Origin: Methanobacteriota archaeon
GTDB taxonomy: Archaea; Thermoplasmatota; Poseidoniia; Poseidoniales; Poseidoniaceae
DNA: 64,000 nt
Assembly (NCBI GenBank): GCA_014240385.1
Contig: JAAZXA010000068.1
Span: 29,090-93,089 of the forward strand
Reading direction: 5' to 3'
Part shown: positions 17,955 through 64,000 of the stretch, one piece after another
How positions within the stretch are numbered: the first letter of the stretch is position 1
Layout: each line of letters starts with the position of its first letter
Translations under genes and position numbers: made by a program
The notes under the pieces: generated by a model
Seen by the model: the letters and a program-made list of their open reading frames with translations, nothing else
Databases searched by the model: none
Told to the model about the DNA's origin: nothing

Positions 17955-17961
17955 GAGCGGT

Positions 17962-18249: not shown

Positions 18250-18256
18250 GAGCGGT

Positions 18257-18532: not shown

Positions 18533-18543
18533 GAGCGGTGGGG

Positions 18544-19476: not shown

Positions 19477-19491
19477 GAGCGGTTTGTTGGT

Positions 19492-19716: not shown

Positions 19717-19768
19717 GAGCGGTGTCGATTCTCATTATTACTGAGTTGCAATAGTGCCATGAGCGGGC

Positions 19769-20035: not shown

Positions 20036-20045
20036 GAGCGGTGAT

Positions 20046-20486: not shown

Positions 20487-20512
20487 GAGCGGTTGTTTTT
20501 GCCGAGGGTATT

Positions 20513-44135: not shown

Positions 44136-44428
44136 CAGGCCTCATCCCCCTCGTCCTTCCTAAGTTGTGTGAGTTCTTGCACCAGCCGCCAGACTATGTC
44201 GTCCATTGTCTCGCCCCTGTTGCCGAGGCTATTCAAGATTTCATGCGTTCTTTGCTTAACATTGATGTGTTTCAACTTTGAGCCGTCTGCCGCAATGTTC
44301 CCCATGAGACCAACTGTGTGTATCTGTCGTATAAGCGACTCGGAGGGATTGGGATGGGATGTGAAAGGCTGTGATACTTGGGCAAGAGGGGAGAGAGTTT
44401 ATGCACCGTGCGCTGAAAGGCGCCCATA

Positions 44429-44635
44429 ATGAAAGCAGAAGATCCTCTAGTGCAAACCTTACTCAAGACCCTGATGGAGTTAGAAAAGGTGGATGAAAAA
44501 GACTTGAGACACATGATTGAAGTTGCTGGACAACTATGTACCCAACTCGAGCGGCCGGAGAGTATTGCGGCCTTGATGTTTCAGGTGATGGATGTTTCCA
44601 AAGCGGTTGATTCCTCGATTACTGGTTATGCCTGA
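44429..44635 (+). CDS. hypothetical protein (68 aa)
   Basis: track ORF; TTTATGCACC box begins 31 nt upstream of the ATG (leaderless-type spacing). Confidence 0.6.
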   Translation: MKAEDPLVQTLLKTLMELEKVDEKDLRHMIEVAGQLCTQLERPESIAALMFQVMDVSKAVDSSITGYA

Positions 44636-44639
44636 ATCC

Positions 44640-44654
44640 TTCATACGACTGAAC
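44640..44654 (+). promoter_or_regulatory. promoter-like box P1 TTCATACGACTGAAC
   Basis: ATACGACTGAAC begins exactly 27 nt before ATG 44670. Confidence 0.6.
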
Positions 44655-44669
44655 ACCTTCGGCTCTCAC

Positions 44670-47111
44670 ATGAGAGTAGGTTTTCTCCTGTTAGGCAACG
44701 CCCCGTTTTACTTGACTGGGTATGGTACGCAATTGAAAATTCTAGGCGACAAATTAATTGAAGAGGGTTACCCTGTAGGTCATGTTGTTGACTTTGGATA
44801 TGCTGGACAACATATGGAATGGGAAGGGCGAACTGTTTACCCCCATGATAAGTTGCCAGGAACTCTGACTGCTGATACAATGAAATCGCACATCCTGTCT
44901 TTTCAACATAAACACGGTTTAGATCAAGTCGTTGTTTGGTCTTTGGGTGATACATGGAAATTGAGTAAGTTGAATCAAGCCATCAAGCACCCGTATTGGA
45001 TTTGCATGACTCCTGTTGATTCGGATAGGATGGATGGCGGTTCAATTACCGCTCACAATAATTCATGGTTGCAAGCCGCAATATCGAAACATGGTGTTGA
45101 AATTATGAGGGCTGCTGGATTAACTGGCATCAATTACCTCCCCCACATGGTCGGAGATTCCTTTGTGCCAATAAATCAAGAGTATGCTAGAGCCGCATGT
45201 GGTTTGCCTCAAGATCCCTTTGTCGTTGGTTTCTTTGGAGACATGAGTATGCGTAAATGCCCTCATGAGAATCTAGAGGCTTTTGCAATTTTCAAGCAGT
45301 CCGTACCGAACTCCCTCCTCTTCATCAAGACTAGTAACCATGTCCAACAGGTTCAATTCCATGAATTAATTCATAGGCTGGGTTTGCAGAATTCGGTTAT
45401 CACAATTCCCCCCTATGATTCCCTTCTAGGGCTAACGGATTATGAGATGGCACGAGCCCTCTCCAGTTTGGATGTGCTTCTTCATGTGAGTTCCCAAGAG
45501 GGTTTTGGAATCATACAAGTTGAAGCCCAAATGTGCGGAGTACCTGTTATCAACATGGATTTTGGTTCCCAAAGAGAGCTTCAAGGAAATCCCGAACTGT
45601 TGGTTCCTGTGGAACAGATGAATCGTGTTGATGGTGGAATGAAGGTTCCATTTGCGGCACCTGAGAAGATAGCGGAGAAGTTGATGTCTGTTTACAACCA
45701 TCTCAATAAAGTCAGCAGTCTTTCCGATGGTTTTATCGTCAAAAGGGCAATCGAACATGCAGAAACATACAGGGTTGATAAGGTGTGGGACGAGTATTAC
45801 AAGCCATTCCTCAAAGGGATGATTGGATCTATTGATGCGGTTTCTAGAGTTGTTATTCCCCCCCGTTCATTGAAGAAGGTGGGCATTGTTTCTACATTCG
45901 ATACTGAATGTGGAATTGCTACTTACACCCACATGCTTGCTACAAAATTGGTAGAGCAGGGAATGGAAGTTGTTGTCTTTTCGGAAACAGACGGTGAGTT
46001 TGAAGAAGTTCTTGAACATGAAGGTATTCGGCACCATCGATGTTGGAATCGAATGAATCCAAACACCAAATTATTCCGTGAACTTGTTGAGAGGGAGGGT
46101 TGCGATATTATCCACTTCCAGCACGAATGGCAGTTGTTCAAGAGTACGGGGTTGATTGAGGAACTTCGAGATGTACAAGTTAAGAAAGCCATCACATATC
46201 ATACCCCTCAGCCCGACCAAATGCGTAAATTGCTAAGGATTACTGATTCAACCGTTGATGCCCACATAACGCACTGGCCGGAGACTACCCAGTTGTTGCC
46301 AATGGTTTGTGAACATGGGATGTTGAATGGTGTCCAAACCATCAAACATGGTGTCCTTGAGCATTCACTTGTCCAGGACAAGTCTGTTCTGGGCATTCCT
46401 GAAAAGGTTCCAGTATTCTTCACCTTTGGTTTTGCTTCTTCAAGCAAGGGGTTGGATTATTTCATTGATGCGGCCATCCAAGCTTCTAAGAATCCAAATT
46501 GCCGGTACTTCGAAGTTGTAATTGCAATGTCCTATCATCCCGATTGGGATATGAGCGACTTGGCGAAGGAGATTAGAGCGAAGGCTGGTTCTGTTGATTT
46601 CATTACGCTTATTGAAGGATGGATGGATGATGATTCACTTGATGTTCATGCGGCTGCTAGTGACTACCTTGTTTTCCCCTACCGTTGGTACCAACAGATC
46701 CATAGTGCGTCTGGCGCAGTTAGACGCGTTTTGGGTCATGGTAAGCCCGTCTTGGTTACAGATGAGGGAAGGCTTCGAGATTTGACTGGAGGCGTACACG
46801 GTTGGAAGTTCGGCCAATACGATGTAGATGGCTTCGCTGCTGCTATTGTTGATGCGTCTTCATTACTTGGCAGTCCTCGGTATCAAAAGATGGCCCAAGC
46901 GGTCAAGGATTACTCTTCTTTGACCTCGTGGGATAATATTGCTGCGCAACACATTCAACTTTACGATAAGGTCTGTGGCTTGTGGTCGGTGGTTCCAGAG
47001 GGTATGTCACGAGCCCAAAGAGTTGAGATTGATTTACCATTCCCAGAATTACTTGATTCGGATGTTCAAGTGGATCGTTGGCATTTGCATAGGGGTGACG
47101 AAGAAGAATGA
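44670..47111 (+). CDS. large two-domain glycosyltransferase (GT-B, GT4-like; 813 aa)
   Basis: track ORF 44592..47111 trimmed to MRVGFLLLG; VSSQEGFGIIQVEAQMCGVPVI E-x7-E region; second Rossmann-like half begins KVGIVSTFDTECGIATY. Confidence 0.8.
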   Translation: MRVGFLLLGNAPFYLTGYGTQLKILGDKLIEEGYPVGHVVDFGYAGQHMEWEGRTVYPHDKLPGTLTADTMKSHILSFQHKHGLDQVVVWSLGDTWKLSKLNQAIKHPYWICMTPVDSDRMDGGSITAHNNSWLQAAISKHGVEIMRAAGLTGINYLPHMVGDSFVPINQEYARAACGLPQDPFVVGFFGDMSMRKCPHENLEAFAIFKQSVPNSLLFIKTSNHVQQVQFHELIHRLGLQNSVITIPPYDSLLGLTDYEMARALSSLDVLLHVSSQEGFGIIQVEAQMCGVPVINMDFGSQRELQGNPELLVPVEQMNRVDGGMKVPFAAPEKIAEKLMSVYNHLNKVSSLSDGFIVKRAIEHAETYRVDKVWDEYYKPFLKGMIGSIDAVSRVVIPPRSLKKVGIVSTFDTECGIATYTHMLATKLVEQGMEVVVFSETDGEFEEVLEHEGIRHHRCWNRMNPNTKLFRELVEREGCDIIHFQHEWQLFKSTGLIEELRDVQVKKAITYHTPQPDQMRKLLRITDSTVDAHITHWPETTQLLPMVCEHGMLNGVQTIKHGVLEHSLVQDKSVLGIPEKVPVFFTFGFASSSKGLDYFIDAAIQASKNPNCRYFEVVIAMSYHPDWDMSDLAKEIRAKAGSVDFITLIEGWMDDDSLDVHAAASDYLVFPYRWYQQIHSASGAVRRVLGHGKPVLVTDEGRLRDLTGGVHGWKFGQYDVDGFAAAIVDASSLLGSPRYQKMAQAVKDYSSLTSWDNIAAQHIQLYDKVCGLWSVVPEGMSRAQRVEIDLPFPELLDSDVQVDRWHLHRGDEEE

Positions 47112-47335
47112 CTGAATGGAAGAAGGAAGATGTTGGCAAGGAAACTCCCGTTTTTATCGAGGGAGTGAAGGTGATTGATATGATTGTTGAAGTAATGTTG
47201 CCAGATGGGCAGGTTATTATTGGGCCTCAATTGGCGTGTGCTCATATTTTTGCTCGTTATTCAATGGTTCCTGCAATGGAGATGGTTAGCGAAGCTACAC
47301 AGAAAACAATTGAAAGCATGGAGGGGGATGCATGA
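47108..47335 (+). CDS. hypothetical protein (75 aa)
   Basis: track ORF; ATGA overlap with the glycosyltransferase stop. Confidence 0.65.
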   Translation: MTEWKKEDVGKETPVFIEGVKVIDMIVEVMLPDGQVIIGPQLACAHIFARYSMVPAMEMVSEATQKTIESMEGDA

Positions 47336-47418
47336 CGCCAGGAGTGGTATACAAGTGTGTGAAATGTGGTGTTTGGAGTATGGGTACTCACAAATGCGTT
47401 CAAGAGGAGGAAGAGTAG
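47332..47418 (+). CDS. zinc-ribbon micro-protein (28 aa)
   Basis: MTPGVVYKCVKCGVWSMGTHKCVQEEEE; GGAGGGGGA SD; ATGA overlap upstream, stop abuts ATG 47419. Confidence 0.45.
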   Translation: MTPGVVYKCVKCGVWSMGTHKCVQEEEE

Positions 47419-48177
47419 ATGTTATCCGTAATCTGTTGTACTGCCCGTCAAGAGGCAGGTATCAAAGAGATGTTGAAGAGTTTGGAAAAGCAGACGCATA
47501 CTGATTTCGAGTTTGTTTTGGTTGATAAGGCATGGGAATCTCGCAACGGGGCTTTCATCCTGATGCTGGATAATTCGTCGGTTAATTGCAAATACATCAA
47601 AGACGAATCCAAACATGGATTTGTTTCGATTGCCTCTGCTCGGAACCTAGCAGTTGAGTCCTCCGATGGAGATTGGATCGTTTCAGTTGATGATAGGACG
47701 CTGTTCTACCCCGATACCTTGGAACTACATGCGCAAGCATTTGAGGAAGGTTGGGATGGTATGGCGGGTTTTTCTGATTTCCACCACGAAGGCGTTTTTG
47801 CTGAGAAAGAACCAGACAAAGAGGATGAGAGGGGAGATAACCCCCAGTCAGGACATGGGAAATATGCATCAAGTAATTTCTTTGGCTATCACATGGGGTT
47901 CTCGAAGAAGGCTTGGGCTAAGGTCCGGGGTTTCGATGAGAACTATGATGGTGTTTACGGGTGGGAAGATTGTGATTTTGGTTTGAGGCTCGGTAATGCG
48001 GGAGCGGTTGTGAAATTGGGAACCCAATGTCGTGTGCTGCAGATTCGAGACGCTGCACATGGCGAGGTTTTCCAGAAGGATGATGCGCCACATGCAATTA
48101 CTGGAGGTCACATCAGATGGCGTAATGACCGAATGTATAGGCTCACATTAATGAACAGGGGCAGGTGCAGGTGGTAA
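47419..48177 (+). CDS. family-2-like glycosyltransferase (252 aa)
   Basis: track ORF; LSVICCTARQEAGIKEMLKSLEKQTHTDFEFVLVD N-terminal GT-A pattern, VSVDD acidic motif; GAGGAGGAAG SD. Confidence 0.7.
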   Translation: MLSVICCTARQEAGIKEMLKSLEKQTHTDFEFVLVDKAWESRNGAFILMLDNSSVNCKYIKDESKHGFVSIASARNLAVESSDGDWIVSVDDRTLFYPDTLELHAQAFEEGWDGMAGFSDFHHEGVFAEKEPDKEDERGDNPQSGHGKYASSNFFGYHMGFSKKAWAKVRGFDENYDGVYGWEDCDFGLRLGNAGAVVKLGTQCRVLQIRDAAHGEVFQKDDAPHAITGGHIRWRNDRMYRLTLMNRGRCRW

Positions 48178-48178
48178 T

Positions 48179-48313
48179 ATGAAAACAAATGGACGCAGAT
48201 ATCGCAGATTAATGGCGGCTTGGAAGAAGAATAGAAGAGGGCGTTCGAAGCCTGTAGCTTCTAAGCGTCAAGGCCGTCCGGTAAGCAAGAAGAGAACCCC
48301 TCGGAGGAGATGA
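48179..48313 (+). CDS. highly basic micro-protein (44 aa)
   Basis: MKTNGRRYRRLMAAWKKNRRGRSKPVASKRQGRPVSKKRTPRRR fills the gap between neighbouring genes exactly. Confidence 0.45.
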   Translation: MKTNGRRYRRLMAAWKKNRRGRSKPVASKRQGRPVSKKRTPRRR

Positions 48314-48314
48314 A

Positions 48315-48950
48315 ATGGTTGATGGTCTTCTGCAGCATGATGAATATTCTGATGTTTGTCCAATCTGCAAGGAAATTGTCACCGAAGAAGAATGGCCTGT
48401 GCCGATTTCGAGAATGGAAGAACGGACAGGGCAGAAGTTTCCCCCTTGCGTAGTATGTGGTTCTGATGAAGACATCCATTACAATTACCTGACTATGCCT
48501 CAGAAGGATGGAAGAGGATTCAATCACAATCTTTTGCTGTGGTGCGAATCCTGCGGAAGTGGTACGCAACATGATGGGTTTGATGTATTGACAGGTAAGC
48601 CCAAGATCGCCCTGCGATTACCGAATGAGTTTTCCAATGATTCGATGGAGAAGGCGAAGGAACGGCTTGAAGCGGCTTTGGCCGCAGGTGAACAGGATGA
48701 AGAACTCGCCCAGGAGATCCAAGCAATGTTAGTCATGCGTGGTTTTTTCCGAGTCCACCATTACCCTTGCTTAGATGATGGTTGGGATGCGATGGGGCAT
48801 GGAGTCCGACCACTAGAAAGAAACGAGATTATGAAGAGGTTCTATGAATGGTCTAATGATGAGGCCATAGGTGTGGCCGAACTGTCTGACAATCCTTTGA
48901 CGAAGAATAAATCTCCTAGGACTCGAAAGCGTGGGAAGCGTTGGTGGTAA
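48315..48950 (+). CDS. multi-zinc-finger protein (211 aa)
   Basis: track ORF; GGAGGAG SD; CPICKE, CVVCGS, CESCGS. Confidence 0.7.
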   Translation: MVDGLLQHDEYSDVCPICKEIVTEEEWPVPISRMEERTGQKFPPCVVCGSDEDIHYNYLTMPQKDGRGFNHNLLLWCESCGSGTQHDGFDVLTGKPKIALRLPNEFSNDSMEKAKERLEAALAAGEQDEELAQEIQAMLVMRGFFRVHHYPCLDDGWDAMGHGVRPLERNEIMKRFYEWSNDEAIGVAELSDNPLTKNKSPRTRKRGKRWW

Positions 48951-48958
48951 CGAACTGA

Positions 48959-48973
48959 TTATATGACTGAACC
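48959..48973 (+). promoter_or_regulatory. promoter-like box P2 TTATATGACTGAACC
   Basis: ATATGACTGAAC begins exactly 27 nt before ATG 48988. Confidence 0.6.
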
Positions 48974-48987
48974 ACTTGAACCAAATC

Positions 48988-49146
48988 ATGCGAGACCCAA
49001 CCTACAAAATCGCCCTAGTCTTTGAAGATGCAGAAGGAAACAATGTTACTCTGGCAACAGATGTACCTGAGAACCAAGTCGGATTGGCACATGCTTCAAT
49101 GTTGAAGCTTGCTGCTGGACTCAAAGGCAAGAGCGACGACGAGTGA
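48988..49146 (+). CDS. hypothetical protein (52 aa), below track cutoff
   Basis: MRDPTYKIALVFEDAEGNNVTLATDVPENQVGLAHASMLKLAAGLKGKSDDE; start positioned by box P2. Confidence 0.5.
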   Translation: MRDPTYKIALVFEDAEGNNVTLATDVPENQVGLAHASMLKLAAGLKGKSDDE

Positions 49147-49189
49147 TTAAAAGCGTAAATGCTAAGGGGCAGAGCCTCTTCGCCTGTTC

Positions 49190-49729
49190 ATGCTCAGCCA
49201 ACCGCATTCTGCTGTAAATCACATGAATTACAGTATTCTTGGTTCACATACTGTTCAAGATGCGGCCAATAATGCGAAGAATAATTTCTCTCCTTCGCAG
49301 AGATCTAGACATGCTCGAACCGCATATCAGAATAATCATCAGAATCTAATGCAACCGGCTATTGCTAACAATCCTCATCTTGCAGATGTTTTGAGAGGTT
49401 CTCAAGATCCAATGGGCGCCTCTTGGAATACTGGCGCTTTTCTCATCGCCGCAGGCGTGGGTGGGTTATTGTCGGTGGTGTCGTCGTCGAAGGACTTGAA
49501 GAGTTTTGGGAAATCGAAGAAGACACAAAGGAGAAACATTACCATTGGTACTATGATTGCTGCTTGTGGGCTGCTTGCAGTTGGATATTCGAAGAATTCT
49601 GAATTAATTCCCGCAGGTATCGGACTTCTTTCTGGCAATGTGGTTGGCAACAACTTGTGGTCTATCGGCTCCCGCGATTCTGGATTCGACTTTACGCCTT
49701 CGAAGTCCCTATTTGAGTTGGACTACTAG
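49190..49729 (+). CDS. membrane protein (179 aa; start uncertain, alternative ATG 49223)
   Basis: track ORF; TM segments GAFLIAAGVGGLLSVV and IGTMIAACGLLAVG. Confidence 0.65.
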   Translation: MLSQPHSAVNHMNYSILGSHTVQDAANNAKNNFSPSQRSRHARTAYQNNHQNLMQPAIANNPHLADVLRGSQDPMGASWNTGAFLIAAGVGGLLSVVSSSKDLKSFGKSKKTQRRNITIGTMIAACGLLAVGYSKNSELIPAGIGLLSGNVVGNNLWSIGSRDSGFDFTPSKSLFELDY

Positions 49730-49739
49730 ATGGGAATGG

Positions 49740-49754
49740 TTCAAACGGCTGAAC
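49740..49754 (+). promoter_or_regulatory. promoter-like box P3 TTCAAACGGCTGAAC
   Basis: AAACGGCTGAAC begins exactly 27 nt before ATG 49770. Confidence 0.6.
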
Positions 49755-49769
49755 CGGCTGGCATTGTCT

Positions 49770-50195
49770 ATGTCGGCAGAAGATGACTCGCACACATTAC
49801 GCATCTTTGGGTTACTTTTCGTAAACTCATTTCTGATTGGTGCGGCAGTTGGGATCCACCAGCAGGGGCTTTGGTTCCCTGAAGAAAGTAATTGGGCTAA
49901 GATTGCAGGCCTCTATATGATGAGTGCTACATTTATTCAAATGGTTGCATTTATGATTTACAAATTGTTCTTCCAGGAGCGACTTGAAGATCAATCGTAT
50001 ATTCAAGGGCTTCATTCCTCTATGCGTCGTAGTATGAAGAAAATTAATGCGGAGACTCAACAATTCCAAGTGGGTCTCGAATTGGAAGCTAAGAGAGCCC
50101 AACAGCAGAAGCAGATGCAATTGCTACGAAATAAGGTCATGGAAGATGATGATGAGTCTGGCCTTAGCGAGAAGATGATGATTGAACTTCGGTGA
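49770..50195 (+). CDS. membrane protein with C-terminal coiled coil (141 aa)
   Basis: track ORF 49638..50195 trimmed to the ATG set by box P3; TM segments LLFVNSFLIGAAVGI and LYMMSATFIQMVAFMIY. Confidence 0.65.
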   Translation: MSAEDDSHTLRIFGLLFVNSFLIGAAVGIHQQGLWFPEESNWAKIAGLYMMSATFIQMVAFMIYKLFFQERLEDQSYIQGLHSSMRRSMKKINAETQQFQVGLELEAKRAQQQKQMQLLRNKVMEDDDESGLSEKMMIELR

Positions 50196-50204
50196 GGCTA
50201 CCTT

Positions 50205-50414
50205 ATGCGAGGGCTTCTTTTTCCAAGTGAATCTGCTCATCAAGCAGAGATAATGGCTGAGGCTTTTGCCAATAAATCGATATGGGACATGCGATGGTAC
50301 AAATTCAAACTTTGGTTCTACACTAGCGTAACTGCTTTCATCTTCATGTTCTTTACATCCCTTATTGAATGGTTCTTTGATTTCAGTCTTTTCAAGTGGA
50401 TGTTCGGGCTGTAG
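50205..50414 (+). CDS. small membrane protein (69 aa)
   Basis: track ORF; GGTGAGG SD; TM segment FYTSVTAFIFMFFTSLIEWFF. Confidence 0.65.
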   Translation: MRGLLFPSESAHQAEIMAEAFANKSIWDMRWYKFKLWFYTSVTAFIFMFFTSLIEWFFDFSLFKWMFGL

Positions 50415-50416
50415 GT

Positions 50417-50431
50417 TTCATACGGCTGAAC
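50417..50431 (+). promoter_or_regulatory. promoter-like box P4 TTCATACGGCTGAAC
   Basis: ATACGGCTGAAC begins exactly 27 nt before ATG 50447. Confidence 0.6.
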
Positions 50432-50446
50432 CGTCTCACATTGTCC

Positions 50447-51211
50447 ATGACGCTAAGCGGATTCATTGCAATGCCTCGAAAACCGGGGAAAACAAAGATT
50501 GGGCAGATCCTCAAGAATATTGGATTCAAGGATAAGGGAGCAGCAGGAAATATGTGGGTCTTTGGTAAGACTCGGTTCCGTGTAGATGTGGTTGATTTTA
50601 GGGATGATTTGAGAGATCATGACGCTGAATGGGTTGAAGAAGTTGGATGGGATGATAATTGGGCCGTCCGTATTGCTGTCAATCATTCTAACAGAACAGA
50701 TGAAAATTACATCTTGTGGCATTCGATTCTAGTCATAGCCGCTGAGTGCTTAGGCGTTAGAGAAATTTGGTTAGATGGCGGCACAGGCATTCCACAGCAA
50801 CCGTACACACTTCGAGAGTTGTTTCCTGAATTGAAATCTGATGAAGGAGAAGACTTGATTGAAGAATCCGAAGCCGCCCCTGTTCTAGTCGACAAGGCAG
50901 AAGTCTTGGAGCTTCCAGATATTGAAACACCTGCTGAGCCTGTTTTGGTTCCATCTGAGCCTGAGCCTGAGCCTGAGCCTGAACCTGTGCCTGAGCCTCA
51001 AACAGAATCGTCCGAAGAGGATTACGATTCCTGGGGATGGGATGAGGATGAGGATGAGGATGAGGATGAGGATGAGGATGAGGACGATTCATGGAATGAG
51101 GATGAGGATGAGGATGAGGATGAGGATGAGGACGAGGATGAATCCGAAGAAGAGAATGAATCCGAAGAGAATGAATCCGAAGAAGGTGTTGATGTAATCA
51201 CTGAATGGTGA
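50447..51211 (+). CDS. protein with (EP)n and (DE)n low-complexity C-terminal half (254 aa)
   Basis: track ORF 50396..51211 trimmed to the ATG set by box P4. Confidence 0.7.
   Translation: MTLSGFIAMPRKPGKTKIGQILKNIGFKDKGAAGNMWVFGKTRFRVDVVDFRDDLRDHDAEWVEEVGWDDNWAVRIAVNHSNRTDENYILWHSILVIAAECLGVREIWLDGGTGIPQQPYTLRELFPELKSDEGEDLIEESEAAPVLVDKAEVLELPDIETPAEPVLVPSEPEPEPEPEPVPEPQTESSEEDYDSWGWDEDEDEDEDEDEDEDDSWNEDEDEDEDEDEDEDESEEENESEENESEEGVDVITEW
50957..50998 (+). repeat. hexanucleotide tandem repeat (GAGCCT)x7, imperfect
   Basis: read directly; encodes EPEPEPEPEPVPEP. Confidence 0.9.
51041..51142 (+). repeat. two runs of (GATGAG)n hexanucleotide repeat
   Basis: 51041-51085 and 51096-51142; encode DEDEDE... 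tracts. Confidence 0.9.
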
Positions 51212-51948
51212 GTTCTTTGGTTGAAGGGGGTGCAATGGCGTGGGGAGGCCTCCTTTACCTCAAGCACCTTTGGGATTCTTGGAAAAGTCACCGAATAGGA
51301 ATATATGGCCTGTGGGCGTGTGGTAAGACCACCCTGAATCGTTATTTGAATACCTCTGGGGATCTCGAAGAAGATACTGCCCGTATGACTAGCACCGCTC
51401 ACCCCTATGATAAGAAGAAGAAGCAGTATGTTCCACCAAATGCAACCCGCAAGAGAATTCATGTTTTGTCCGAAGCAAATCAGTCATTCCGTAGAACCAT
51501 TCTCTCGTCTGATATTGGAGGCCAGTCCGAATATTTCAATCTCTGGGTTCGAGATTTGGTGTTGCGTGATGTTGAAGTAATCATCTATCTGGTTGATTCA
51601 AGGGATGATCCAGATGGGCTTCAAGAGGCAACATTTCGAGACTTTACGAGAATTATTGCCGAGAGAGATTTCCGTTTTACTGAACGAAAATTGAGGAAAA
51701 AGGCCAGAAATTATCAGCCGAAGGTGGTAGCCCTTGTTGCCAATAAATCGGACCTTTGGCTCAATCCAGACGAACGGGCGTATTACGAGGGGTCTGGCAT
51801 TGGCAGGCATCCAATTTTTGATGCTTACAGGCCGCACTTGGTACGGCTACAGAGAGCCGGTATTCCTACTTTGAAGCGAAGTATTTCAGCCCTCCATGGG
51901 TATGATGTGGAGCGATTAATATGGGATTGCTTGAAGGCGAAGTCGTGA
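51205..51948 (+). CDS. Arf/Arl/Sar-like small GTPase (247 aa; alternative start ATG 51235)
   Basis: G1 GLWACGKTT, G3 DIGGQSEYFNLW...IIYLVDSRD, G4 ANKSD, G5 SAL; hydrophobic N-terminal helix MAWGGLLYLKHLWDSW, as in Arf. Confidence 0.75.
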   Translation: MVSSLVEGGAMAWGGLLYLKHLWDSWKSHRIGIYGLWACGKTTLNRYLNTSGDLEEDTARMTSTAHPYDKKKKQYVPPNATRKRIHVLSEANQSFRRTILSSDIGGQSEYFNLWVRDLVLRDVEVIIYLVDSRDDPDGLQEATFRDFTRIIAERDFRFTERKLRKKARNYQPKVVALVANKSDLWLNPDERAYYEGSGIGRHPIFDAYRPHLVRLQRAGIPTLKRSISALHGYDVERLIWDCLKAKS

Positions 51949-51959
51949 TATGACTAAAC
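51945..51959 (+). promoter_or_regulatory. promoter-like box P5 GTGATATGACTAAAC
   Basis: ATATGACTAAAC begins exactly 27 nt before ATG 51975. Confidence 0.55.
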
Positions 51960-51974
51960 CACTTGGCAACTACC

Positions 51975-52748
51975 ATGTCGATGTTTGGCGATGAGGCTTC
52001 GAGTGGTCTGGAGGATTCTCATTTTATGTCGAATGTGAGGTTCACCTTCGATGACAATCCGGATCCATACAAACGAAGAAAGATAAATATGAAAAACGCG
52101 TATGGCGTTTTGAAACCAAAGCGTAGATGGAGGATTGGTTCCCCCGTCCATAACAATGCAGGACAATGTTGTGTTACTGGTATTGATTTGAGGGCTTTGG
52201 GTGCTGAAGCTTACAACAGGGCTTTACTTGACCCGCATACCCTGCAGCCTGTGGATGATGGTCGAACATTGATGACTGAGTTCTTTCTAGATCATTTGAC
52301 GGGCAAACCAGTTCAGTTTGCGGCTCAATCTGGAGTTACTACTGGTTTGCCGCTTCGTTCGTCTTATTGTCCAGGATTATTGCAGATTTATTGGTTGTAT
52401 ACTCAATGGAAATATGAAACCGATATGGAAGAACAGGGTAGGAATAGTTCATTCCTTAGAAGTAGAGGTATTGAATTAAAGCCTTTGAGAAGAAAGGATG
52501 TCAAAAAGCGCAATAGACCCTTGTTAGTCGATGAAATTGAGCCTTTTTTTGCTAAGGTCAAAATGCATGAAGGGCAGGGCATAACCATTGTTGAGTATTC
52601 TAATCCTGATGAAAATTCTAACTTCTTCGGAGAGATTGATTTAGTACACATAACATTGGATTTGCGGAAGATGCGAAGCGAGGAATTAAATAGGGAAAAG
52701 ACAAAGGGGGGCAACCCCTCCGATAATCAAAGCGAGGTTATACCATGA
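51975..52748 (+). CDS. hypothetical protein (257 aa)
   Basis: track ORF 51963..52748 (TTG) trimmed to the ATG set by box P5. Confidence 0.7.
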   Translation: MSMFGDEASSGLEDSHFMSNVRFTFDDNPDPYKRRKINMKNAYGVLKPKRRWRIGSPVHNNAGQCCVTGIDLRALGAEAYNRALLDPHTLQPVDDGRTLMTEFFLDHLTGKPVQFAAQSGVTTGLPLRSSYCPGLLQIYWLYTQWKYETDMEEQGRNSSFLRSRGIELKPLRRKDVKKRNRPLLVDEIEPFFAKVKMHEGQGITIVEYSNPDENSNFFGEIDLVHITLDLRKMRSEELNREKTKGGNPSDNQSEVIP

Positions 52749-53449
52749 GCTTCTACAATCCAAACCCCACACCACAAAATACGAACGCTAATGTCGGTAA
52801 TCCGTTCTCTAAGGCACCTCCAGTGCCAACTGGAGCACCAATGGGTATGCAGGGTATGCAGCCAATGGGACAACAAAACCCCTATGGTATGTATCAACCA
52901 ACGCCACAGGCTTTGTGGGCTCAACTTGGTTATCAAACCGAGCCCTCTTTGGTTGAACTCATTCGAGATTTAGTTGTACAGAATTCTTTGGATTCTGCGC
53001 GATTCGCCGTTGAGGGGGGTTTCTTCGCTGATATTGCAATTATGGAGCAACTGATTGATTATCGCTTGAAGGAGTTCTTCACCAATTTCCGATTAGAAAT
53101 ACACCAAGACGCTACGCAAGAAGGTGCTATGTTCATCAAACCTGCTCCAGAGCAGCCTACGGATGAAGGAAAGAGATTGGCAACCCTCACCCAAAGTGAT
53201 TTGACTGCGAAGGTTGAGGAAATCAAGGGTGCAATTCGAGATAATCTATTGCAGACTGCGGATCAGAAAATTGAGTTGCATATCCAGGCGTCTGCTTTGG
53301 CTACGCAACAAGGATTCATGGGCTCTCTTCTAGCAGAGGACGCTAATGGGCAAAGAGGCGGCATTCTTTCTGCTACTGCAGGAGTTGCAGGAGGCATTCT
53401 AAGATCTGCTGCAGGTCTTCCACCTGCGCCAAAACCACCGGGGGCTTGA
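52745..53449 (+). CDS. hypothetical protein with Q/P/M/N-rich N-terminus (234 aa)
   Basis: track ORF; GAGGT SD; ATGA overlap with the upstream stop. Confidence 0.7.
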   Translation: MSFYNPNPTPQNTNANVGNPFSKAPPVPTGAPMGMQGMQPMGQQNPYGMYQPTPQALWAQLGYQTEPSLVELIRDLVVQNSLDSARFAVEGGFFADIAIMEQLIDYRLKEFFTNFRLEIHQDATQEGAMFIKPAPEQPTDEGKRLATLTQSDLTAKVEEIKGAIRDNLLQTADQKIELHIQASALATQQGFMGSLLAEDANGQRGGILSATAGVAGGILRSAAGLPPAPKPPGA

Positions 53450-53453
53450 TTAA

Positions 53454-53753
53454 ATGAGTGTTGAAAGAGTTGATGAATTGCTAACAGAGATGGCGTCCGG
53501 TTCGAAGTCAAGAAAGAAAGAAATAGATGTTTATTCGATTATGGATGATTGGTTTCAACCTAAATCAGAATTGATGAAGCATGTGATTATTATTCAAATG
53601 ATTGCTTGTATTATCGTATCGATGTTCCTTTTGATTACTGTCGGAGATTCTCTGAGTAGTGAGGGCTTGCTCTTTGCAGTCATGGCTTTCATGTTGTTTG
53701 TTGGCGGATCCTTCCAATTTTACAATCGAATGACGGGTGGAGGGAGATACTGA
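53454..53753 (+). CDS. membrane protein (99 aa, 2 TM)
   Basis: track ORF; VIIIQMIACIIVSMFLLITV and LLFAVMAFMLFVGG. Confidence 0.65.
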   Translation: MSVERVDELLTEMASGSKSRKKEIDVYSIMDDWFQPKSELMKHVIIIQMIACIIVSMFLLITVGDSLSSEGLLFAVMAFMLFVGGSFQFYNRMTGGGRY

Positions 53754-55200: not shown

Positions 55201-55297
55201 ATGAAAGTGAAAGTGTTGAATATGAATTGAGCCCCGGCGATACTGAGGGTATATGAACTATGCATAGTGGAAGAATTTCCTTGCGGCAGTAATGAAG

Positions 55298-55371
55298 CGG
55301 CCCCACGGGGATTTGAACCCCGGTTACTGGTTCCGCAAACCAGTGTGATATCCAAGCTACACTATGGGGCC
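55298..55371 (-). tRNA. tRNA-Arg (anticodon GCG), no encoded CCA
   Basis: GGCCCCA/TA/GTGT..TCAC/A/CTGGT-TTGCGGA-ACCAG/TAAC/CGGGG-TTCAAAT-CCCCG/TGGGGCC/G. Confidence 0.85.
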
Positions 55372-57563: not shown

Positions 57564-58385
57564 CTACTCTTCCTCAGTCGCTTGATTGTTTTGGAAAGGA
57601 ATGGTTATTTCAGGTTCGGCCACAAGGGTTGGATGTATGCCTTCTACTACCTCTCCATCAACATCCATCATGCCATAGATGTACAAATTCTTTTTCTCGA
57701 GAATGTTCTTGATTGTCTGTCTGTGCCAGACCACCTTTCCCTTCCTTGTTTTGATGGCTTTTGTTGCTAGTTCATTGATTATGTCGGATATTGTGTAGCC
57801 TTGAGTTTCCATATTGAAGATTATGTTTACTACGCTTGCTTCTTCTTCGTTTGGTACAAGCAAACCTTTCTTGGATCTCTTTCCTGTATCATCGATTTCA
57901 ATATTCATGTCATACCCATAGGGGGGTGTTCCAAGCCAAATTCCTTTCAACTTTGCACCTGCCATGCCCATTTTGACTCTTTCTTTGATTTCATTTCGCC
58001 TTAGTTCAGCCAATGCTGCGAATACTATGTAGAAGAAGCGGCCTTGAACCGTTGTAGTGTCCATTTGTTCAGAGATACATGCAATATGGCAGTTGTTTGT
58101 ATCAATTGTGTTTACAAATTCAATTGCGTTCATGGTGTTGCGATGAAACCGGTCTAGTTTGTAACCAACTACTGCGTCCCATTCTTCGCCCATGGTTTCC
58201 ATCATCGCACCATATCCAGGCCTGTTGTCTGTGAATCCACCTGATCCTGTATCTGAGTAGCTTCGAATGTAAGTCCAACCTTGCATTTCGATGTAGTTCT
58301 GGCAAAGCCTCAACTGTTCCTCTAGGCTGTGGCCTTTTGCTTCTTGCTTCTCGGTTGAAACTCTTGTGTAGATTATTGCTCGCAT
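57564..58385 (-). CDS. serine recombinase (resolvase/invertase catalytic domain plus C-terminal extension)
   Basis: MRAIIYTRVSTEKQ...GHSLEEQ...YSDTGSGG...RPGY; canonical N-terminal Ser-recombinase motifs. Confidence 0.85.
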   Translation of the reverse strand: MRAIIYTRVSTEKQEAKGHSLEEQLRLCQNYIEMQGWTYIRSYSDTGSGGFTDNRPGYGAMMETMGEEWDAVVGYKLDRFHRNTMNAIEFVNTIDTNNCHIACISEQMDTTTVQGRFFYIVFAALAELRRNEIKERVKMGMAGAKLKGIWLGTPPYGYDMNIEIDDTGKRSKKGLLVPNEEEASVVNIIFNMETQGYTISDIINELATKAIKTRKGKVVWHRQTIKNILEKKNLYIYGMMDVDGEVVEGIHPTLVAEPEITIPFQNNQATEEE

Positions 58386-58703: not shown

Positions 58704-59082
58704 GGTTCGTTCACCATAACCTTGGTTAATTGTCGCTATGAAGGGTCAGTCGTATTACACCTTCGCCCTGTGAACCGAATTATCACCCGTTTAACACGCT
58801 ATTCCCCCCCACATAGGGGGTATGTTGACGATGAAGGAGTTCCTTTGCGCTCAACCCCCCCACCTTCATAGTCAAAAACGGGTATTTTTCACCTCATAAC
58901 TTCTCATTGAATCGCAAGTCCTCACATCACATCTCAATTGTAAGGTTGGGGTGGAATGAACCTCATGTGGTTCTGCGCTTCTAACCTTCGTTCACAGGCA
59001 ATTCCAATTCCTATCTACACATTAGGGGTGAATTACCTACTTCGTGCAACAAGGGATCTAGATGAAACAATAGGAAACAAGG

Positions 59083-59156
59083 CGGGTCATGCAGGGTTCG
59101 AACCTGCGGCCTACTGGTTAAGAGCCAGTCGCTCTACCTGACTAAGCTAATGACCC
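59083..59156 (-). tRNA. tRNA-Lys (anticodon CUU)
   Basis: GGGTCAT/TA/GCTT-AGTCAGGTA-GAGC/G/ACTGG-CTCTTAA-CCAGT/AGGCC/GCAGG-TTCGAAC-CCTGC/ATGACCC/G. Confidence 0.9.
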
Positions 59157-59263: not shown

Positions 59264-59572
59264 TCATTTCCAAGGATTTAGGCTATTTATGTTGTAATCA
59301 ACCAACAGATCAGTCTTCTTCGAAGAGGATTTGTCGTTGATGTACCAACCGAGGGCGGTGCAAGCAAAGTCTCCAAGGATGTTTAGGGCTGTGTCTTTGG
59401 AGTTATCGGGGAATACGCTGCTGAGTTTTTCCTTGAGGTAGTAATTTTCAAGCAGTTCGAAGGCAGTATGGAGAACCAATGTGGTTCCAAGAGTTAGGCC
59501 TACCCCTCTGGCGATTACGCCCATGGCAGCGTGTCCGATTGAGTATGGATCAATGAAGCCCTGGTTGCTCAT
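59264..59572 (-). CDS. hypothetical membrane-associated protein (102 aa)
   Basis: track ORF 59264..59680 trimmed to the ATG with AAGGAGGGAGATTA SD (TAATG overlap with the upstream stop). Confidence 0.65.
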   Translation of the reverse strand: MSNQGFIDPYSIGHAAMGVIARGVGLTLGTTLVLHTAFELLENYYLKEKLSSVFPDNSKDTALNILGDFACTALGWYINDKSSSKKTDLLVDYNINSLNPWK

Positions 59573-60015
59573 TAATCTCCCTCCTTGAATTTCAATAATG
59601 GTGTACCGTAGGAGCTTTCCCGGAATACATCCAGGTCTTTGTGCCTCAGTAGTGCTCCACTGCCCATCTTGGAGTACCACATTCCCTCAATCTTTCTAGA
59701 TCCATGCTTTACCGTGATGTCGCCTATGGCGTTAATTTCTCCGTATATGCAAACTGTGGCTTTATCGTCCTCAAAGGTAGGGGTATAACCGTGTTTTTTG
59801 TAAAACCTGATGAACTCTAGATAAGATGATGTTCCATCTTTGTTAAGATCTATTTCATTCCATACCCATCTGTCCTTTACACCGATGGTGAATGCTATGC
59901 AATTGTAGGCTTTGGTGTATCTATCGATTACCTCGTATTTGAGGTGTGGGAATTGGTTTCTGTAAGTTGTGAGCAACCGGGGTCGATGTGGATGAGGCCC
60001 TCTCAGTTCATGCAC
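59572..60015 (-). CDS. hypothetical protein (147 aa)
   Basis: track ORF. Confidence 0.65.
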   Translation of the reverse strand: MHELRGPHPHRPRLLTTYRNQFPHLKYEVIDRYTKAYNCIAFTIGVKDRWVWNEIDLNKDGTSSYLEFIRFYKKHGYTPTFEDDKATVCIYGEINAIGDITVKHGSRKIEGMWYSKMGSGALLRHKDLDVFRESSYGTPLLKFKEGD

Positions 60016-60026
60016 TTAGAGGCCCC

Positions 60027-60656
60027 CTAGAATCCATACGGTTGCCCTAGTAGCCCTCTCGCATTACTGTGTCCGTCTAGGTTAGTGTATCTTCGTCTCG
60101 ATATCTCAACGAATTTCAAGAATATTGTTCCTGTTGTCTGGAGGTTTTGAACCTTCAAACGGATTCTATGCCTGTATGGCCTAAGACCTCGGAACATTGC
60201 TACTTTGAGTGTGGCTGTATCTTTCTTCAAGAACCAATTTCCATACTGCTCAGGCATTCCTAAATCAGATACATCTTCAAGGATGATTCCTTGGTATGAT
60301 GATGATGATGTCGTGTCGTAATGGCTTTCCAATCCGCCTTGAGCGAATCCGTCTAATTGTAAGAAGACTGCGAGTTTCTCAGGGTTTGCAGGGGTGCTTC
60401 CGTCTGGAAGGTCGCCTGCATCTGCTGTAGCTTGAATAATCACATAGTTCAATTCCCCGGATTCTCTGTCATCGAGAATTGTTAGGGTTTCGCCAGCCGC
60501 TATTTCGATTTTGTTTCTGCGGATGGTGATGTCTCGAAGATCTTGTTGGTCTGCTCTGCCGCCATCCATACCTGCCATCGGATCTATGATTAGAGGTATT
60601 TCCATTGGCGGTGCTGAGTCAATTATATCGCTAATTCCATCTGGTTCGTGTTCCAT
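60027..60656 (-). CDS. hypothetical (probably virion-associated) protein (209 aa)
   Basis: track ORF; TGATG overlap with the upstream fibre-like gene. Confidence 0.65.
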   Translation of the reverse strand: MEHEPDGISDIIDSAPPMEIPLIIDPMAGMDGGRADQQDLRDITIRRNKIEIAAGETLTILDDRESGELNYVIIQATADAGDLPDGSTPANPEKLAVFLQLDGFAQGGLESHYDTTSSSSYQGIILEDVSDLGMPEQYGNWFLKKDTATLKVAMFRGLRPYRHRIRLKVQNLQTTGTIFLKFVEISRRRYTNLDGHSNARGLLGQPYGF

Positions 60657-63511
60657 CAGTAATCCCTCCGATGTGTTGAGCGTGGGTCTCTGCGTTGTTT
60701 ATGCCTTCTCCTGGATGTGCCGTTAAGGATTACTTCTGTCTGAGGTGTTATTTGGTTCGTGGCATTGTCGAACTCTTGTTTGTTCATTGGAGTTCCTTTG
60801 TGGTTCCTTACATGCTCATGCCAACCCTCAGCAGGTCCAGCAGGCCCAGCAGTTCCTCTACCGAGTCCTTGTTTCTTGTATGCATCTAGAGCGTGTGGGA
60901 TTACTTCGTATTTGAATCCGCCAGATCTCTTAGTCATTCGTCTGACTTCTGGGTCTGGGACTGGTCGAAGTTTGTATTTGTAGCCAACAATGGTGAGCAC
61001 AGGATCTAAGATGTCTTCATCATTACCTGCAATCTGGAATTCGGGTAGGTTCTCTTCACCAACTCCGACCCAGAGCATGTAGGTTGGGTTCGGAGCAATT
61101 GCTGGAGATTCATTGGCTGTTATCCATCCTGTTTTGTTAATCATCAGGGCATCATTGTTATCCATTCCTACATCGTCTCTGAATGCTACTCCTTGAGCCG
61201 CGAACTTTGGTACTCCTTTTGGTTGGTATACTCGAAGTCTTGCGCTTGTGTAGCCAACGAATGTTTTCTGCATTTTCCCTCGAGTTGTTGTTGGTGCAGT
61301 CCAGTCGCATTGGTAGGCTGTTCCGTTGTCTGGTAGTTTACCAAGTTGGTCTCTCATGACACCTCCGAAATGCGTTGATTTAGGACCTGTTTCGGTAGTC
61401 CCAGCATTGAGGACAGTTAATTGTTCATCAGTATCAAAAAGGTATGTTGTTGGGGAGAAGGGTACATCGCTTCGGGTAGCCTTGGCGAAACCACCTGCTG
61501 CAGTAATGAATTTGGGTGTGTGATTCAAACCAACGCCTACATGATATACGACTGACTTGTCTTTTTTGGATAAGGTGTCCAATATTGTGGCTTGGAATTT
61601 GTTTAGCATTGTTTGCGTTCCTGCGGCTTCTGAACCAGCATGTCCAGGAATGAATTGGATTCGAACAGGATCTCCTGCTACGAATCCTTGGTGAGTAAGG
61701 GCTGCTGTGGTGAAAGTACCTTGTTTGTTGCTCAATGTAACTGCCCCTGTAATTTTTGCTACCTCACGGACGGCTCCGTTTTGCCCTCCAAATATGATGT
61801 CGGTTCCTACAGGTATTACGAGGCTGTCCCATGAGCTTCCAGCAATGGCCTCATTTTCTGTTACATTGATTACAAATGATGTCATCCCTACATTCAATGA
61901 AACCAATTCTGCCTCGAGACCCACTGGGAGTGCAACCGTCAATGAATCAACGCCGGTTACCCTGTGTAACCCTGCGCCCGTCATTACCAATTGTCCTGGC
62001 ATCAACTTCTGCGGGACTCTTCCTCCTTGAGCGAGGGCGGCTCCTGCTGGTTTTGTGTTGGGTGCGGTCTTCCTCGTTACTTTGATGGTTTGGAGACCTC
62101 CTCGAGTCACTACTGCATTCTTGTTGTAGTTGTTCAATGTTGAAGTGGCTGTTGCCTTGGTTGATGAGCCACCTCCAGTGAATGTGATTGGGGGCGGGGT
62201 TCCATAACCTGCTCCGGGATTGGTAATATCAACTGATTCAACAGTTGTTGAGGTTAATGTGGCGGTCATGGTTTCTGCGGCGCCACAGTTGGCTTGACCT
62301 GCTAGGAGCGCAGTAGATGAGGCAATTGCGTATGCTCCCGTTCCGCCTGAATCTGCTGCTATGGGAAGGACTGCTGCCCCGAACTGGTCGCAGAATGGAT
62401 CTGCTGGTAATACAGTTAATGTCGGGGGTGCGGTGTAACCTGCTCCTGGCGTTGATACTGTAACTGAAGCTATTGTGGTTGGAATGAGGCTGGCGACTGC
62501 AGTGGCACCGCTTCCTGCAAACCCCGTAAGGCCTGATAAGTCGATGGTGGGTGCTGATGTGTAACTTCCACCTGCTGATGTTATGGTTACTACTGTGATT
62601 GTATTGCCTGCGACATCTACTGTTGCAGTACCAGATCCACTTACTGTAATGCTTAGGCCGGTCCCATTGGTTAGGCCTGTTCCTGCATTGGTGATTGTAA
62701 TTCTTCCTAGAGTGGTTGCGGTTAATACTGGAACACATACTGCTGCAGTTGTTGGTGTGTCGTCATTTGACGGGGTGACTACGAGTGTTGGAACCTTCGT
62801 ATACTTCGCTGTAAGGGCGCTGCCCTCAGAACGGGCTACTGCTGAACCTGCTACGGCGACTGATGCTACGCTAGTGCCTGTTAATTTGGCAACTGCGGTA
62901 GCACCGCCCCCAGTATCAATCCAAGCCTCTGCTTCTGCTGAATAGGTTGGGTCACTTTGAGCACTACTGGAACCTGTTGAATCTGTAAGGGCGACCGTAG
63001 GCGGTGTTGTATACCCACTTCCTCGAGAATTGGCATCGGTTGTATCGCCTTGAGGGAATATGATTTGTTGGATTGTACCATTGCGAATGTAAGCAAATGC
63101 TAGGGCTCCAGAACCTGCGCCTCCGGAGAAGGCGATTTTAGGCCCGATTTCATACCTGCTAGTGGTATCGGGGTTTGTACCCCATGTAGACACCGTAGCA
63201 GACTTTGTAGCGCCCGTGTAATCCGTTATTTCACGGACTTGCCCTGCGCCCGTCCCAGATTCGATGTAAATGTATGCGCCATTGTAGTAATCGTCAGCGG
63301 CATTTGCTGTTCCTGCTAGAACTATTGTAGTTCCGCTTCCGCCTGTTGCCATTCCGTTTGTGTGATTGTCATAGATGAAGCGTCCTGCACCGCTTGAACC
63401 GTCATTGAGGATGTTCAATTTGGTTATGAAGCCCGAAACAACGGCAACTGTCGGAACAGTTTCATAACTGACTCCTGCGCCCGTTATTTCGATTGATTTT
63501 ATACCTGCCAT
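60656..63511 (-). CDS. large fibre/decoration-like structural protein with repeated GxGYTxxPxV modules (951 aa)
   Basis: track ORF. At least four G(S/A)GYT(T/A/S)(P/A)PT(V/L/I) repeats. ADDYYNGAYIYIESGTGAGQVREITDYTGATKSATVS motif common in phage fibre proteins. Gly/Thr/Ala-rich. Confidence 0.6.
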   Translation of the reverse strand: MAGIKSIEITGAGVSYETVPTVAVVSGFITKLNILNDGSSGAGRFIYDNHTNGMATGGSGTTIVLAGTANAADDYYNGAYIYIESGTGAGQVREITDYTGATKSATVSTWGTNPDTTSRYEIGPKIAFSGGAGSGALAFAYIRNGTIQQIIFPQGDTTDANSRGSGYTTPPTVALTDSTGSSSAQSDPTYSAEAEAWIDTGGGATAVAKLTGTSVASVAVAGSAVARSEGSALTAKYTKVPTLVVTPSNDDTPTTAAVCVPVLTATTLGRITITNAGTGLTNGTGLSITVSGSGTATVDVAGNTITVVTITSAGGSYTSAPTIDLSGLTGFAGSGATAVASLIPTTIASVTVSTPGAGYTAPPTLTVLPADPFCDQFGAAVLPIAADSGGTGAYAIASSTALLAGQANCGAAETMTATLTSTTVESVDITNPGAGYGTPPPITFTGGGSSTKATATSTLNNYNKNAVVTRGGLQTIKVTRKTAPNTKPAGAALAQGGRVPQKLMPGQLVMTGAGLHRVTGVDSLTVALPVGLEAELVSLNVGMTSFVINVTENEAIAGSSWDSLVIPVGTDIIFGGQNGAVREVAKITGAVTLSNKQGTFTTAALTHQGFVAGDPVRIQFIPGHAGSEAAGTQTMLNKFQATILDTLSKKDKSVVYHVGVGLNHTPKFITAAGGFAKATRSDVPFSPTTYLFDTDEQLTVLNAGTTETGPKSTHFGGVMRDQLGKLPDNGTAYQCDWTAPTTTRGKMQKTFVGYTSARLRVYQPKGVPKFAAQGVAFRDDVGMDNNDALMINKTGWITANESPAIAPNPTYMLWVGVGEENLPEFQIAGNDEDILDPVLTIVGYKYKLRPVPDPEVRRMTKRSGGFKYEVIPHALDAYKKQGLGRGTAGPAGPAEGWHEHVRNHKGTPMNKQEFDNATNQITPQTEVILNGTSRRRHKQRRDPRSTHRRDY

Positions 63512-63530
63512 CTAGATCACCTTCGTGATC

Positions 63531-64000
63531 TCAGACTGCGAAATCATCTTGCATTGTTCCTGCATGAGGCAGGCCGTAGTCCGTGATGATTTTGTAGTGT
63601 AGCTTCCCGTTGTTCGATGCCCTCATTTCTTCTACCTTTGCTCTGCTTAGAGGCGTTACGCGAATTTTGTAGCCTTCGAGATAGATGACTGGGTCGTAGC
63701 AAACTTCACCCGATACATTCAAAAATCTGAAATTTGGCAAATTGCTCTCGCCTTCGGAAATCCAAATACCAAACGCAGGGTTAGGGTCGTCCTGTGGACT
63801 GTTGTTTACATCAATCCATCCTGTCTTGTCGTCTCCGGGACTCTCATCAGCGGACCATCTTGGGATTCCAGAGGGATGCTGTAGGAAGCAACGGCCTGAG
63901 ATATCTCCGACCTTCATTCTCTGTGCTGCACCTACTGTCTTCAATGCTGCAGAAAGTGTGATTTCAGTTGTGTCGTTAGGGAATCCTACTCCGTTGTAAG
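63531..64000 (-). CDS. structural protein paralog, C-terminal part only (N-terminus beyond window end)
   Basis: frame open to 64000 upstream of the track TTG start; the last ~110 aa align with the C-terminal region of the 951-aa protein. Confidence 0.6.
   Translation of the reverse strand, partial: YNGVGFPNDTTEITLSAALKTVGAAQRMKVGDISGRCFLQHPSGIPRWSADESPGDDKTGWIDVNNSPQDDPNPAFGIWISEGESNLPNFRFLNVSGEVCYDPVIYLEGYKIRVTPLSRAKVEEMRASNNGKLHYKIITDYGLPHAGTMQDDFAV

Follow-up and report, generated by a model that had tools for sequence, protein, structure and literature searches.

Two neighbouring genes with a common core

At the right-hand edge of a 64,000-nucleotide stretch of contig JAAZXA010000068.1 (assembly GCA_014240385.1; hereafter the window), two adjacent minus-strand genes encode proteins that share a domain, and they are followed by a third gene, p209 (Table 1). 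We refer to the two products as the large and the small protein. The large protein is identical to a database protein (P0001) that was seen once, on a 128,049-bp NCBI contig, while the small gene is cut by the window end, its frame 63531..63998(-) comprising 155 codons that represent the exact C-terminus of a 255-residue protein (P0122) of the same contig. A Shine-Dalgarno-like GGTGATC (63515-63521) precedes the ATG of the large gene, and the ATG of p209 overlaps the stop codon of the large gene by one base, with a GGAGG 9 nucleotides upstream (60656-60672). The small and large genes would be read from one transcript, and the Shine-Dalgarno-like motifs together with the one-base overlap suggest polycistronic, coupled translation. 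In relatives, the p209 counterpart (p208) is always positioned directly after the large gene (L001, L004, L007, L008 and L010; 34-76% identity), and p209 has no match in Pfam, PHROG or NCBIfam. None of the three products possesses a hydrophobic N-terminal stretch or a transmembrane (TM)-like segment, arguing against Sec-exported cell-surface proteins.

An earlier note, made from the letters of the window and its open reading frames (ORFs), had proposed that the large protein shares a C-terminal domain of ~110 residues with its truncated neighbour. Pairwise alignment showed the sharing to be significant: residues 738-874 of the large protein aligned by BLASTP with residues 16-146 of the partial small protein (32% identity, E=9e-21), and comparison of the two families by hhalign matched small 80-238 with large 654-871 (99.7% probability, E=5.8e-26, 157 columns), so that the extent had been underestimated and is ~160 residues by hhalign. 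A further hhalign match connects small 7-58 with large ~490-545 (E=7.8e-4), and a hidden Markov model (HMM) of the small family gave collinear weak segments in every large-type protein in hmmsearch (small ~20-54 with large ~470-540; small ~80-120 with large ~620-690). The full-length small protein is predicted to form a single beta-sandwich or jelly-roll, and its predicted elements (E27-30, E33-48, E80-88, E91-95, E129-133, E136-140, E178-181, E189-193, E204-217 and H219-228) match predicted elements in residues 508-863 of the large protein one to one and in order. Given that the weak matches are collinear and the predicted strand order agrees, the whole small protein probably corresponds to residues ~497-880 of the large one. 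The two proteins are true paralogues, their similarity being far beyond chance, and the comparison suggests that the large protein consists of the small one plus an insertion of ~120 residues, longer loops, a basic tail of 71 residues and an N-terminal extension of ~485 residues. The shared region does lie in the C-terminal part of the large protein, as the earlier note had it, but not at the extreme C-terminus, which is formed by the tail (residues 881-951). Comparison with the complete upstream gene, which the note had also proposed, revealed that its full product is essentially the core alone. Neither the small protein nor the shared core of the large one matched a Pfam, PHROG or NCBIfam family or a PDB sequence, and a profile of the shared domain searched against PDB sequences gave no match.

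Thr (13.8%), Gly (12.1%) and Ala (11.5%) are abundant in the 951-residue product, as had been noted, and all motifs quoted from it are present, at residues 72 (ADDYYNG...), 162, 314, 355, 432 and 795. Its AlphaFold2 (AF2) model (predicted local distance difference test (pLDDT) 74, predicted template modelling score (pTM) 0.45) displays small beta domains strung along residues 1-470 (pLDDT 80-94) with low-confidence linkers between them (223-227, 376-407 and 467-496), followed by a well-predicted core with an inserted six-strand domain and by a helical tail of low confidence. Foldseek searches of this model against the PDB returned small barrels and nothing better than E >= 0.013. The inserted strands (532-618, pLDDT ~80-94) occupy the place of a loop of ~30 residues in the small protein. 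Within the arm, the motif G-x-GY-x-x-P-x-[VIL] is found at residues 13, 164, 314, 356 and 433, with a degenerate copy near residue 277. In a loose form, G-x(1,2)-Y-x(2,3)-P-x-[VIL], the pattern occurred 5 times against 0.13 expected from 5000 shuffles and the strict form 4 times against 0 in 5000 shuffles, the pattern having been derived from the large protein sequence itself. The motifs are kept at the same alignment columns in homologues, and the claim of repeated modules was thus borne out by both the shuffle test and conservation. Self-BLASTP of the large protein found no internal repeats, indicating that the arm modules are short and divergent. The PHROG matches of the arm are to repeat-bearing virion proteins and are confined to the N-terminal repeat modules.

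Short repeat modules like those of the arm are also present elsewhere (P0064 and P0114 among the database matches), both in proteins with phage tail-sheath domains (PF04984 and PF17482) and in cellular ones that bear F5/8 type C, multicopper oxidase or beta-1,3-glucanase domains. This type of repeat module is a promiscuous surface-display unit outside Pfam coverage.

Homologues of the large protein comprise 10 further full-length proteins at 43-69% identity and 2 relatives of ~1020 residues. Its orthologues in three related loci (L008, L009 and L010), by contrast, are 453-465 residues long, align with residues ~486-935 and are without the N-terminal ~485 residues, indicating that the arm is a lineage-specific addition. 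The tail, with 13 K+R, 5 H and 7 D+E, is near-invariant in all large-type homologues, the short ones included, and the invariant columns of the large family cluster at residues 745-951.

Table 1. Positions of the pair, its parts and surrounding features (window coordinates unless a related locus is named).
Feature	Position	Strand	Remarks
Large paralogue gene	60656..63511	-	951 aa (amino acids), ATG start; ORF list
N-terminal arm, residues 1-470	62102..63511	-	chain of small beta modules; motifs and shuffles, AF2, PHROG matches
Predicted small beta-barrel, residues ~50-130	63122..63364	-	holds ADDYYNGAYIYIESGTGAGQVREITDY
Core homologous to probably the whole small protein, residues ~497-880	60872..62023	-	predicted jelly-roll-like sandwich
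Insertion domain within core, residues ~530-650	61562..61924	-	~120 aa; family alignment and AF2
Basic C-terminal tail, residues 881-951	60659..60871	-	71 aa; absent from small protein
Spacer between small and large	63512..63530	-	19 nucleotides; sequence read directly
Small paralogue gene, 3' part	63531..64000	-	last 155 codons and stop; gene cut by window end
p209 (p208 in relatives)	60027..60656	-	209 aa, downstream of large gene; sequence and synteny
Serine recombinase	57564-58385	-	Resolvase and Recombinase domains; ~3 kb downstream of large gene
tRNA-Arg(GCG)	55297-55371	-	few kb downstream of pair
tRNA-Lys(CTT)	59081-59156	-	few kb downstream of pair
K/R-repeat protein	L004 1297-2529; L001 2802-4004	+	400-410 aa
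p169 tandem paralogue pair	L004 7132-7641 and 7653-8420; L001 7417-7911 and 7924-8457	+ (L004)	
Giant-ORF run	L011/L015/L017/L018; IMGVR_UViG_3300020446_000001 contig 87,000-127,570; merged coordinates 64-39,057		

The upstream module and its distribution

The context upstream of the pair was taken from related loci (L001, L004, L007 and L010). In these relatives the gene order is a P-loop ATPase of 253 residues, a lysine/arginine (K/R)-repeat protein, ~9 small ORFs with TM-like segments, p197, one or two copies of p169, two small proteins, the small and large paralogues and p208. The ATPase, 8-9 kb upstream, and a ribbon-helix-helix-like protein are encoded on the opposite strand, and a thermosome gene (Cpn60_TCP1) is located 8 kb upstream (seen in L001). 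The 253-residue protein matched phrog_2666 ('head and packaging') with E values of 1e-9 to 1e-12 and HerA in the PDB with an E value of 0.0033, while NCBIfam gave weak matches to TraD, VirB4, HerA and EssC alike; judged by these matches, it appears to be an FtsK/HerA-superfamily ATPase of the short kind. Members of this superfamily include the packaging enzymes of tailless viruses that contain a membrane, and also conjugation ATPases. A sister clade of the ATPase (242 residues, PF01935/DUF87) is carried on 113-177-kb contigs.

Of the small ORFs that separate the ATPase from the pair, at least nine reach a Kyte-Doolittle mean of 1.6 or more over a 19-residue window and are predicted membrane proteins. 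The K/R-repeat protein, which is very basic, begins with ~190 residues of K/R-rich repeats (AAKKAWRTRRRN...); hydrophobic segments come next, and the C-terminus is conserved and Asn/Met-rich. It is a candidate membrane-tethered DNA-condensing protein. The second p169 copy in L004 has a central insertion of ~90 residues. No relation of p197, p169 or p208 to the small family was found by hhalign.

Conservation is uneven across this module. Comparing L004 with L001 and L010, identity was 89 and 73% for p197, 86 and 60% for the small protein, 76 and 57% for the ATPase, and 45 and 30% for the large protein, so that p197 and the small protein are the best conserved of the module and the large protein the least. 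This contrast between the paralogues looks like the pattern of a constrained shell protein beside an exposed variable one. The sister clade retains the ATPase, p197 and the small protein, while a large homologue was not detectable there. In an exhaustive profile search, 1.84 billion protein clusters yielded 82 representatives, many of which were minimal versions of ~185 residues, and in three unrelated contigs such a minimal homologue directly follows a protein of similar size (L014 1031-2220, L022 674-1856 and L023 5307-6447). In L014 and L022 this neighbour is a p197 homologue (hhalign 94.5%, E 8e-8). Because p197 accompanies minimal small homologues in unrelated contigs, the two appear to be an old, conserved pair, and the large protein a later duplicate of the small one. 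In L023, glycosyltransferase, sugar-epimerase and methyltransferase genes form a block after the minimal homologue.

The elements recur at a constant 127-131 kb in Tara Oceans and other marine metagenomes, and IMG/VR lists two full-size relatives as viral contigs. At the sensitivity used, searches of GTDB representative genomes, phage records and plasmid records did not find the family; when the large protein, the small protein and the ATPase were compared by tblastn with phage and plasmid collections, no real match appeared, and none was found by tblastn in 50,697 phage and archaeal-virus records. A sister-clade element with ATPase and p197 homologues (L020; ERZ840367 NODE_27, 144,934 bp) runs, at 17208-20729, into gltD/gltB-like glutamate synthase genes, where the syntenic contig L019 has a small homologue. 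Possible explanations of this junction are an integration boundary, a block of auxiliary genes and a chimeric assembly.

Survey of the whole element

To cover the element as a whole, the window (83 ORFs) was combined with 59,236 bp merged from a relative (IMGVR_UViG_3300020446_000001; 127,570 bp, 22 ORFs), giving ~123 kb. Neither terminase, portal nor HK97 capsid was found by Pfam in the 83 window ORFs or the 22 ORFs of the relative's other half, and none of these families, nor tail tube, tape measure or sheath, was found in the ~123 kb or, by Pfam and PHROG, in the 10 kb upstream. Upstream of the thermosome gene, 40 kb are taken up by a co-directional run of giant ORFs (603, 627, 790, 1036, 1195, 1479, 983, 1611 and 2464 residues), in which the recognisable domains are limited to guanylate kinase, ATP-dependent DNA ligase domains, a TFIIS zinc ribbon, DUF5824 and DUF7831. 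PolB and RNA polymerase were not found by Pfam in the window or the 59 kb of the relative, nor by phmmer of four giant ORFs against PDB sequences.

The presence of a thermosome and a resolvase, together with relatives in Tara Oceans, is shared with the 'group D' magrovirus-like elements of Marine Group II archaea (Philosof 2017, PMC5434244; Xu 2023, PMC10160649). Those elements are reported to lack structural genes, to be possibly plasmid-like and to show enrichment in the cellular size fraction (PMC5434244, PMC10160649); their nature was left open (PMC5434244) and they are still described without capsid genes (PMC10160649, PMC11706807). The lack of recognised capsid genes in Pfam searches of the ~123 kb is a further likeness. 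By contrast, the PolB and RNA polymerase A genes that define group D were not found here in that sequence, and identity with group D is a lead. A classical tailed magrovirus, which the thermosome had first suggested, was rejected on account of GC content (~45% here against 31.5% in YSH_150918, the single magrovirus genome compared; PMC10768690), size (128 kb against 90-100 kb) and the failure to find HK97, portal and terminase genes in the ~123 kb. The Charybdis elements of Poseidoniales (bioRxiv 10.1101/2025.08.03.668216) are 4.6 kb in size and unrelated.

The window otherwise contains methylases, glycosyltransferases, PAPS-reductase-like genes, a TFIIB-like gene, the serine recombinase and two tRNAs, and no virion hallmark families were found in it. 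The serine recombinase keeps the same relative position in all related loci, after a conserved DUF7689 gene (59572-60015). The only plus-strand gene block of the window (42486-53753) is marked by a switch to positive GC skew and includes the TFIIB-like gene of 402 residues, an 839-residue protein in which two regions are of the glycosyltransferase-4 type, and a series of genes for ~250-residue proteins; matches to glycosyltransferase family 2 are also present in the window. Along the minus-strand array of window positions 1-42000, AT skew is strongly negative (-0.20 to -0.29), with the coding strand A-rich over T, and it is weaker in the plus-strand block.

Proposed particle proteins and the alternatives

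We favour, while rating it somewhat short of probable, a reading in which the pair are particle proteins of a tailless, membrane-containing archaeal virus-like element of ~128 kb. The small protein would be a compact jelly-roll building block of the particle. The large protein, as a duplicate that keeps the jelly-roll core, would be able through this core to join the lattice or oligomer of the small protein, with vertices or similar special positions as the most plausible sites. Its basic C-terminal tail would point inward, toward membrane or DNA, and the ~485-residue chain of beta modules, restricted to this sub-lineage, would reach outward as an arm for adhesion or host recognition. Two systems offer the closest working analogies, namely the small/large jelly-roll capsid pairs of sphaerolipovirus-type viruses and the penton-spike pair P31/P5 of PRD1. 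Sphaerolipovirus-type viruses build mixed capsomers from a small and a large major capsid protein, both vertical single jelly-rolls. Similarly, adjacent genes for a smaller and a larger predicted jelly-roll are found here, the larger with an extra domain on its core, and the module contains a short FtsK/HerA-type ATPase and many small membrane proteins. In PRD1, a small jelly-roll vertex protein and the spike P5, which carries a homologous domain, occupy the same vertex and the distal receptor-binding part of the spike projects from it; a predicted jelly-roll-like core is likewise common to the small and the arm-bearing large protein. However, the shared domain of P5 is N-terminal and its fibre C-terminal, the reverse of the order seen here, and a double-jelly-roll capsid gene was not identified. 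The pair shows no sequence similarity to known members of either system, its structural scores are weak, and the genome is four to seven times larger. VP4 of SPV1 (Sulfolobus polyhedral virus 1, Portogloboviridae; PDB 6oj0_T) has 5-9% sequence identity; it is a protein of 178 residues without a paralogous fibre-bearing partner, from a 20-kb genome.

Several observations count against particle proteins of such a virus-like element. The models of the two proteins are of medium confidence (pLDDT 71 and 74), and the weak scores of the ATPase are similar for the conjugation and secretion ATPases TraD, VirB4 and EssC. By simple addition, with the overlap unknown, ~5 kb or more of the element type lies outside the survey, within which 40 kb of giant ORFs are largely uncharacterised, and Pfam can miss divergent archaeal-virus proteins. 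The ATPase matches also suit a cell-associated apparatus of the conjugation, secretion or vesicle type, belonging to a megaplasmid or integrative element, in which the large protein would act as surface adhesin and the small one as a structural subunit. That explanation is helped by the many membrane proteins of the module, the serine recombinase, the possibly plasmid-like and cellular-fraction-enriched group D elements that lack structural genes, the sister-clade contig running into glutamate synthase genes, and the occurrence of similar repeat modules in cellular surface proteins. It must also accommodate the lack of hydrophobic N-terminal stretches in the small and large proteins, and we consider it unlikely.

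The earlier note had called the large protein fibre-like and one of its motifs typical of phage fibre and decoration proteins. Placed in a tailed archaeal virus (Caudoviricetes), the large protein would bind the receptor as a fibre or be associated with the hub, and the small one, with the same attachment domain, would belong to the baseplate. The structural matches of the large protein do include tail-tip, hub and tailspike proteins of tailed phages (R4C hub 8gtc_P, JBD30 DUF2163 8rk3_g, lambda J and tailspike depolymerases). Given that these matches are absent from the list of the small protein, they probably stem from the non-shared parts of the large one, either the ADDYYNG...GTGAGQ barrel or the insertion, and would lie outside the shared domain. 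A typical tail fibre has a conserved N-terminal attachment part and a variable C-terminal receptor-binding tip, whereas here the C-terminal 200 residues are the most conserved and the N-terminal 485 dispensable. Both this reversed polarity and the failure to find tailed-virus hallmark genes in the ~123 kb argue against a tail fibre; in addition, the 253-residue ATPase has PDB and NCBIfam matches of FtsK/HerA type and the module is rich in small proteins with TM-like segments. The fibre label is thus not established, and a tailed virus seems rather improbable. Of the note's idea of a shared anchor with different distal parts, the conserved core as a plausible anchor and the variable N-terminal part as a plausible exposed part can be kept. 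Alternative tips on a common anchor, however, do not fit a small protein that has no distal part, the comparison being between core only and core plus arm.

A variant closer to the sphaerolipovirus analogy would make both proteins major shell proteins of mixed capsomers, with an arm on every capsomer and hence a hairy capsid rather than vertex spikes. Here the core of the large protein is 30-45% conserved against 60-86% for the small protein, and it is p197, rather than the large protein, that stays with the small protein as its conserved partner in distant elements. A sister clade with ATPase, p197 and small protein that has no detectable large homologue, and the unusual demand for a 485-residue arm on every capsomer, also speak against mixed capsomers, which we regard as very improbable.

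Returning to particle proteins of a tailless element, the pair with the nearby packaging-type ATPase and the membrane proteins represents the best candidate for particle-building genes in an element group in which none had been recognised. A broader proposal is that the small and large proteins, p197, the 253-residue ATPase and the membrane-protein block form the morphogenetic module of archaeal viruses that infect marine Poseidoniales-type hosts and represent a lineage not recognised before, large (~128-145 kb), tailless and with an internal membrane; we hold it more doubtfully, as a possibility. To our knowledge, ~128-145 kb is several times larger than any known single-jelly-roll archaeal virus. 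If such a lineage exists, it could explain the 'capsid-less' magrovirus-like elements, whose status as virus or plasmid has been debated since 2017. These marine elements of ~128 kb carry no gene that current libraries recognise as structural, and the pair marks a conserved, unannotated morphogenesis-like module in them. The ATPase, p197, the small protein and its fibre-bearing paralogue can serve as markers for fraction and proteome searches, as candidates for fitting into cryo-electron microscopy maps and as a probe for related elements. Even if the proteins are not in particles, they represent a clean case of structural-protein duplication followed by the gain of an adhesion arm.

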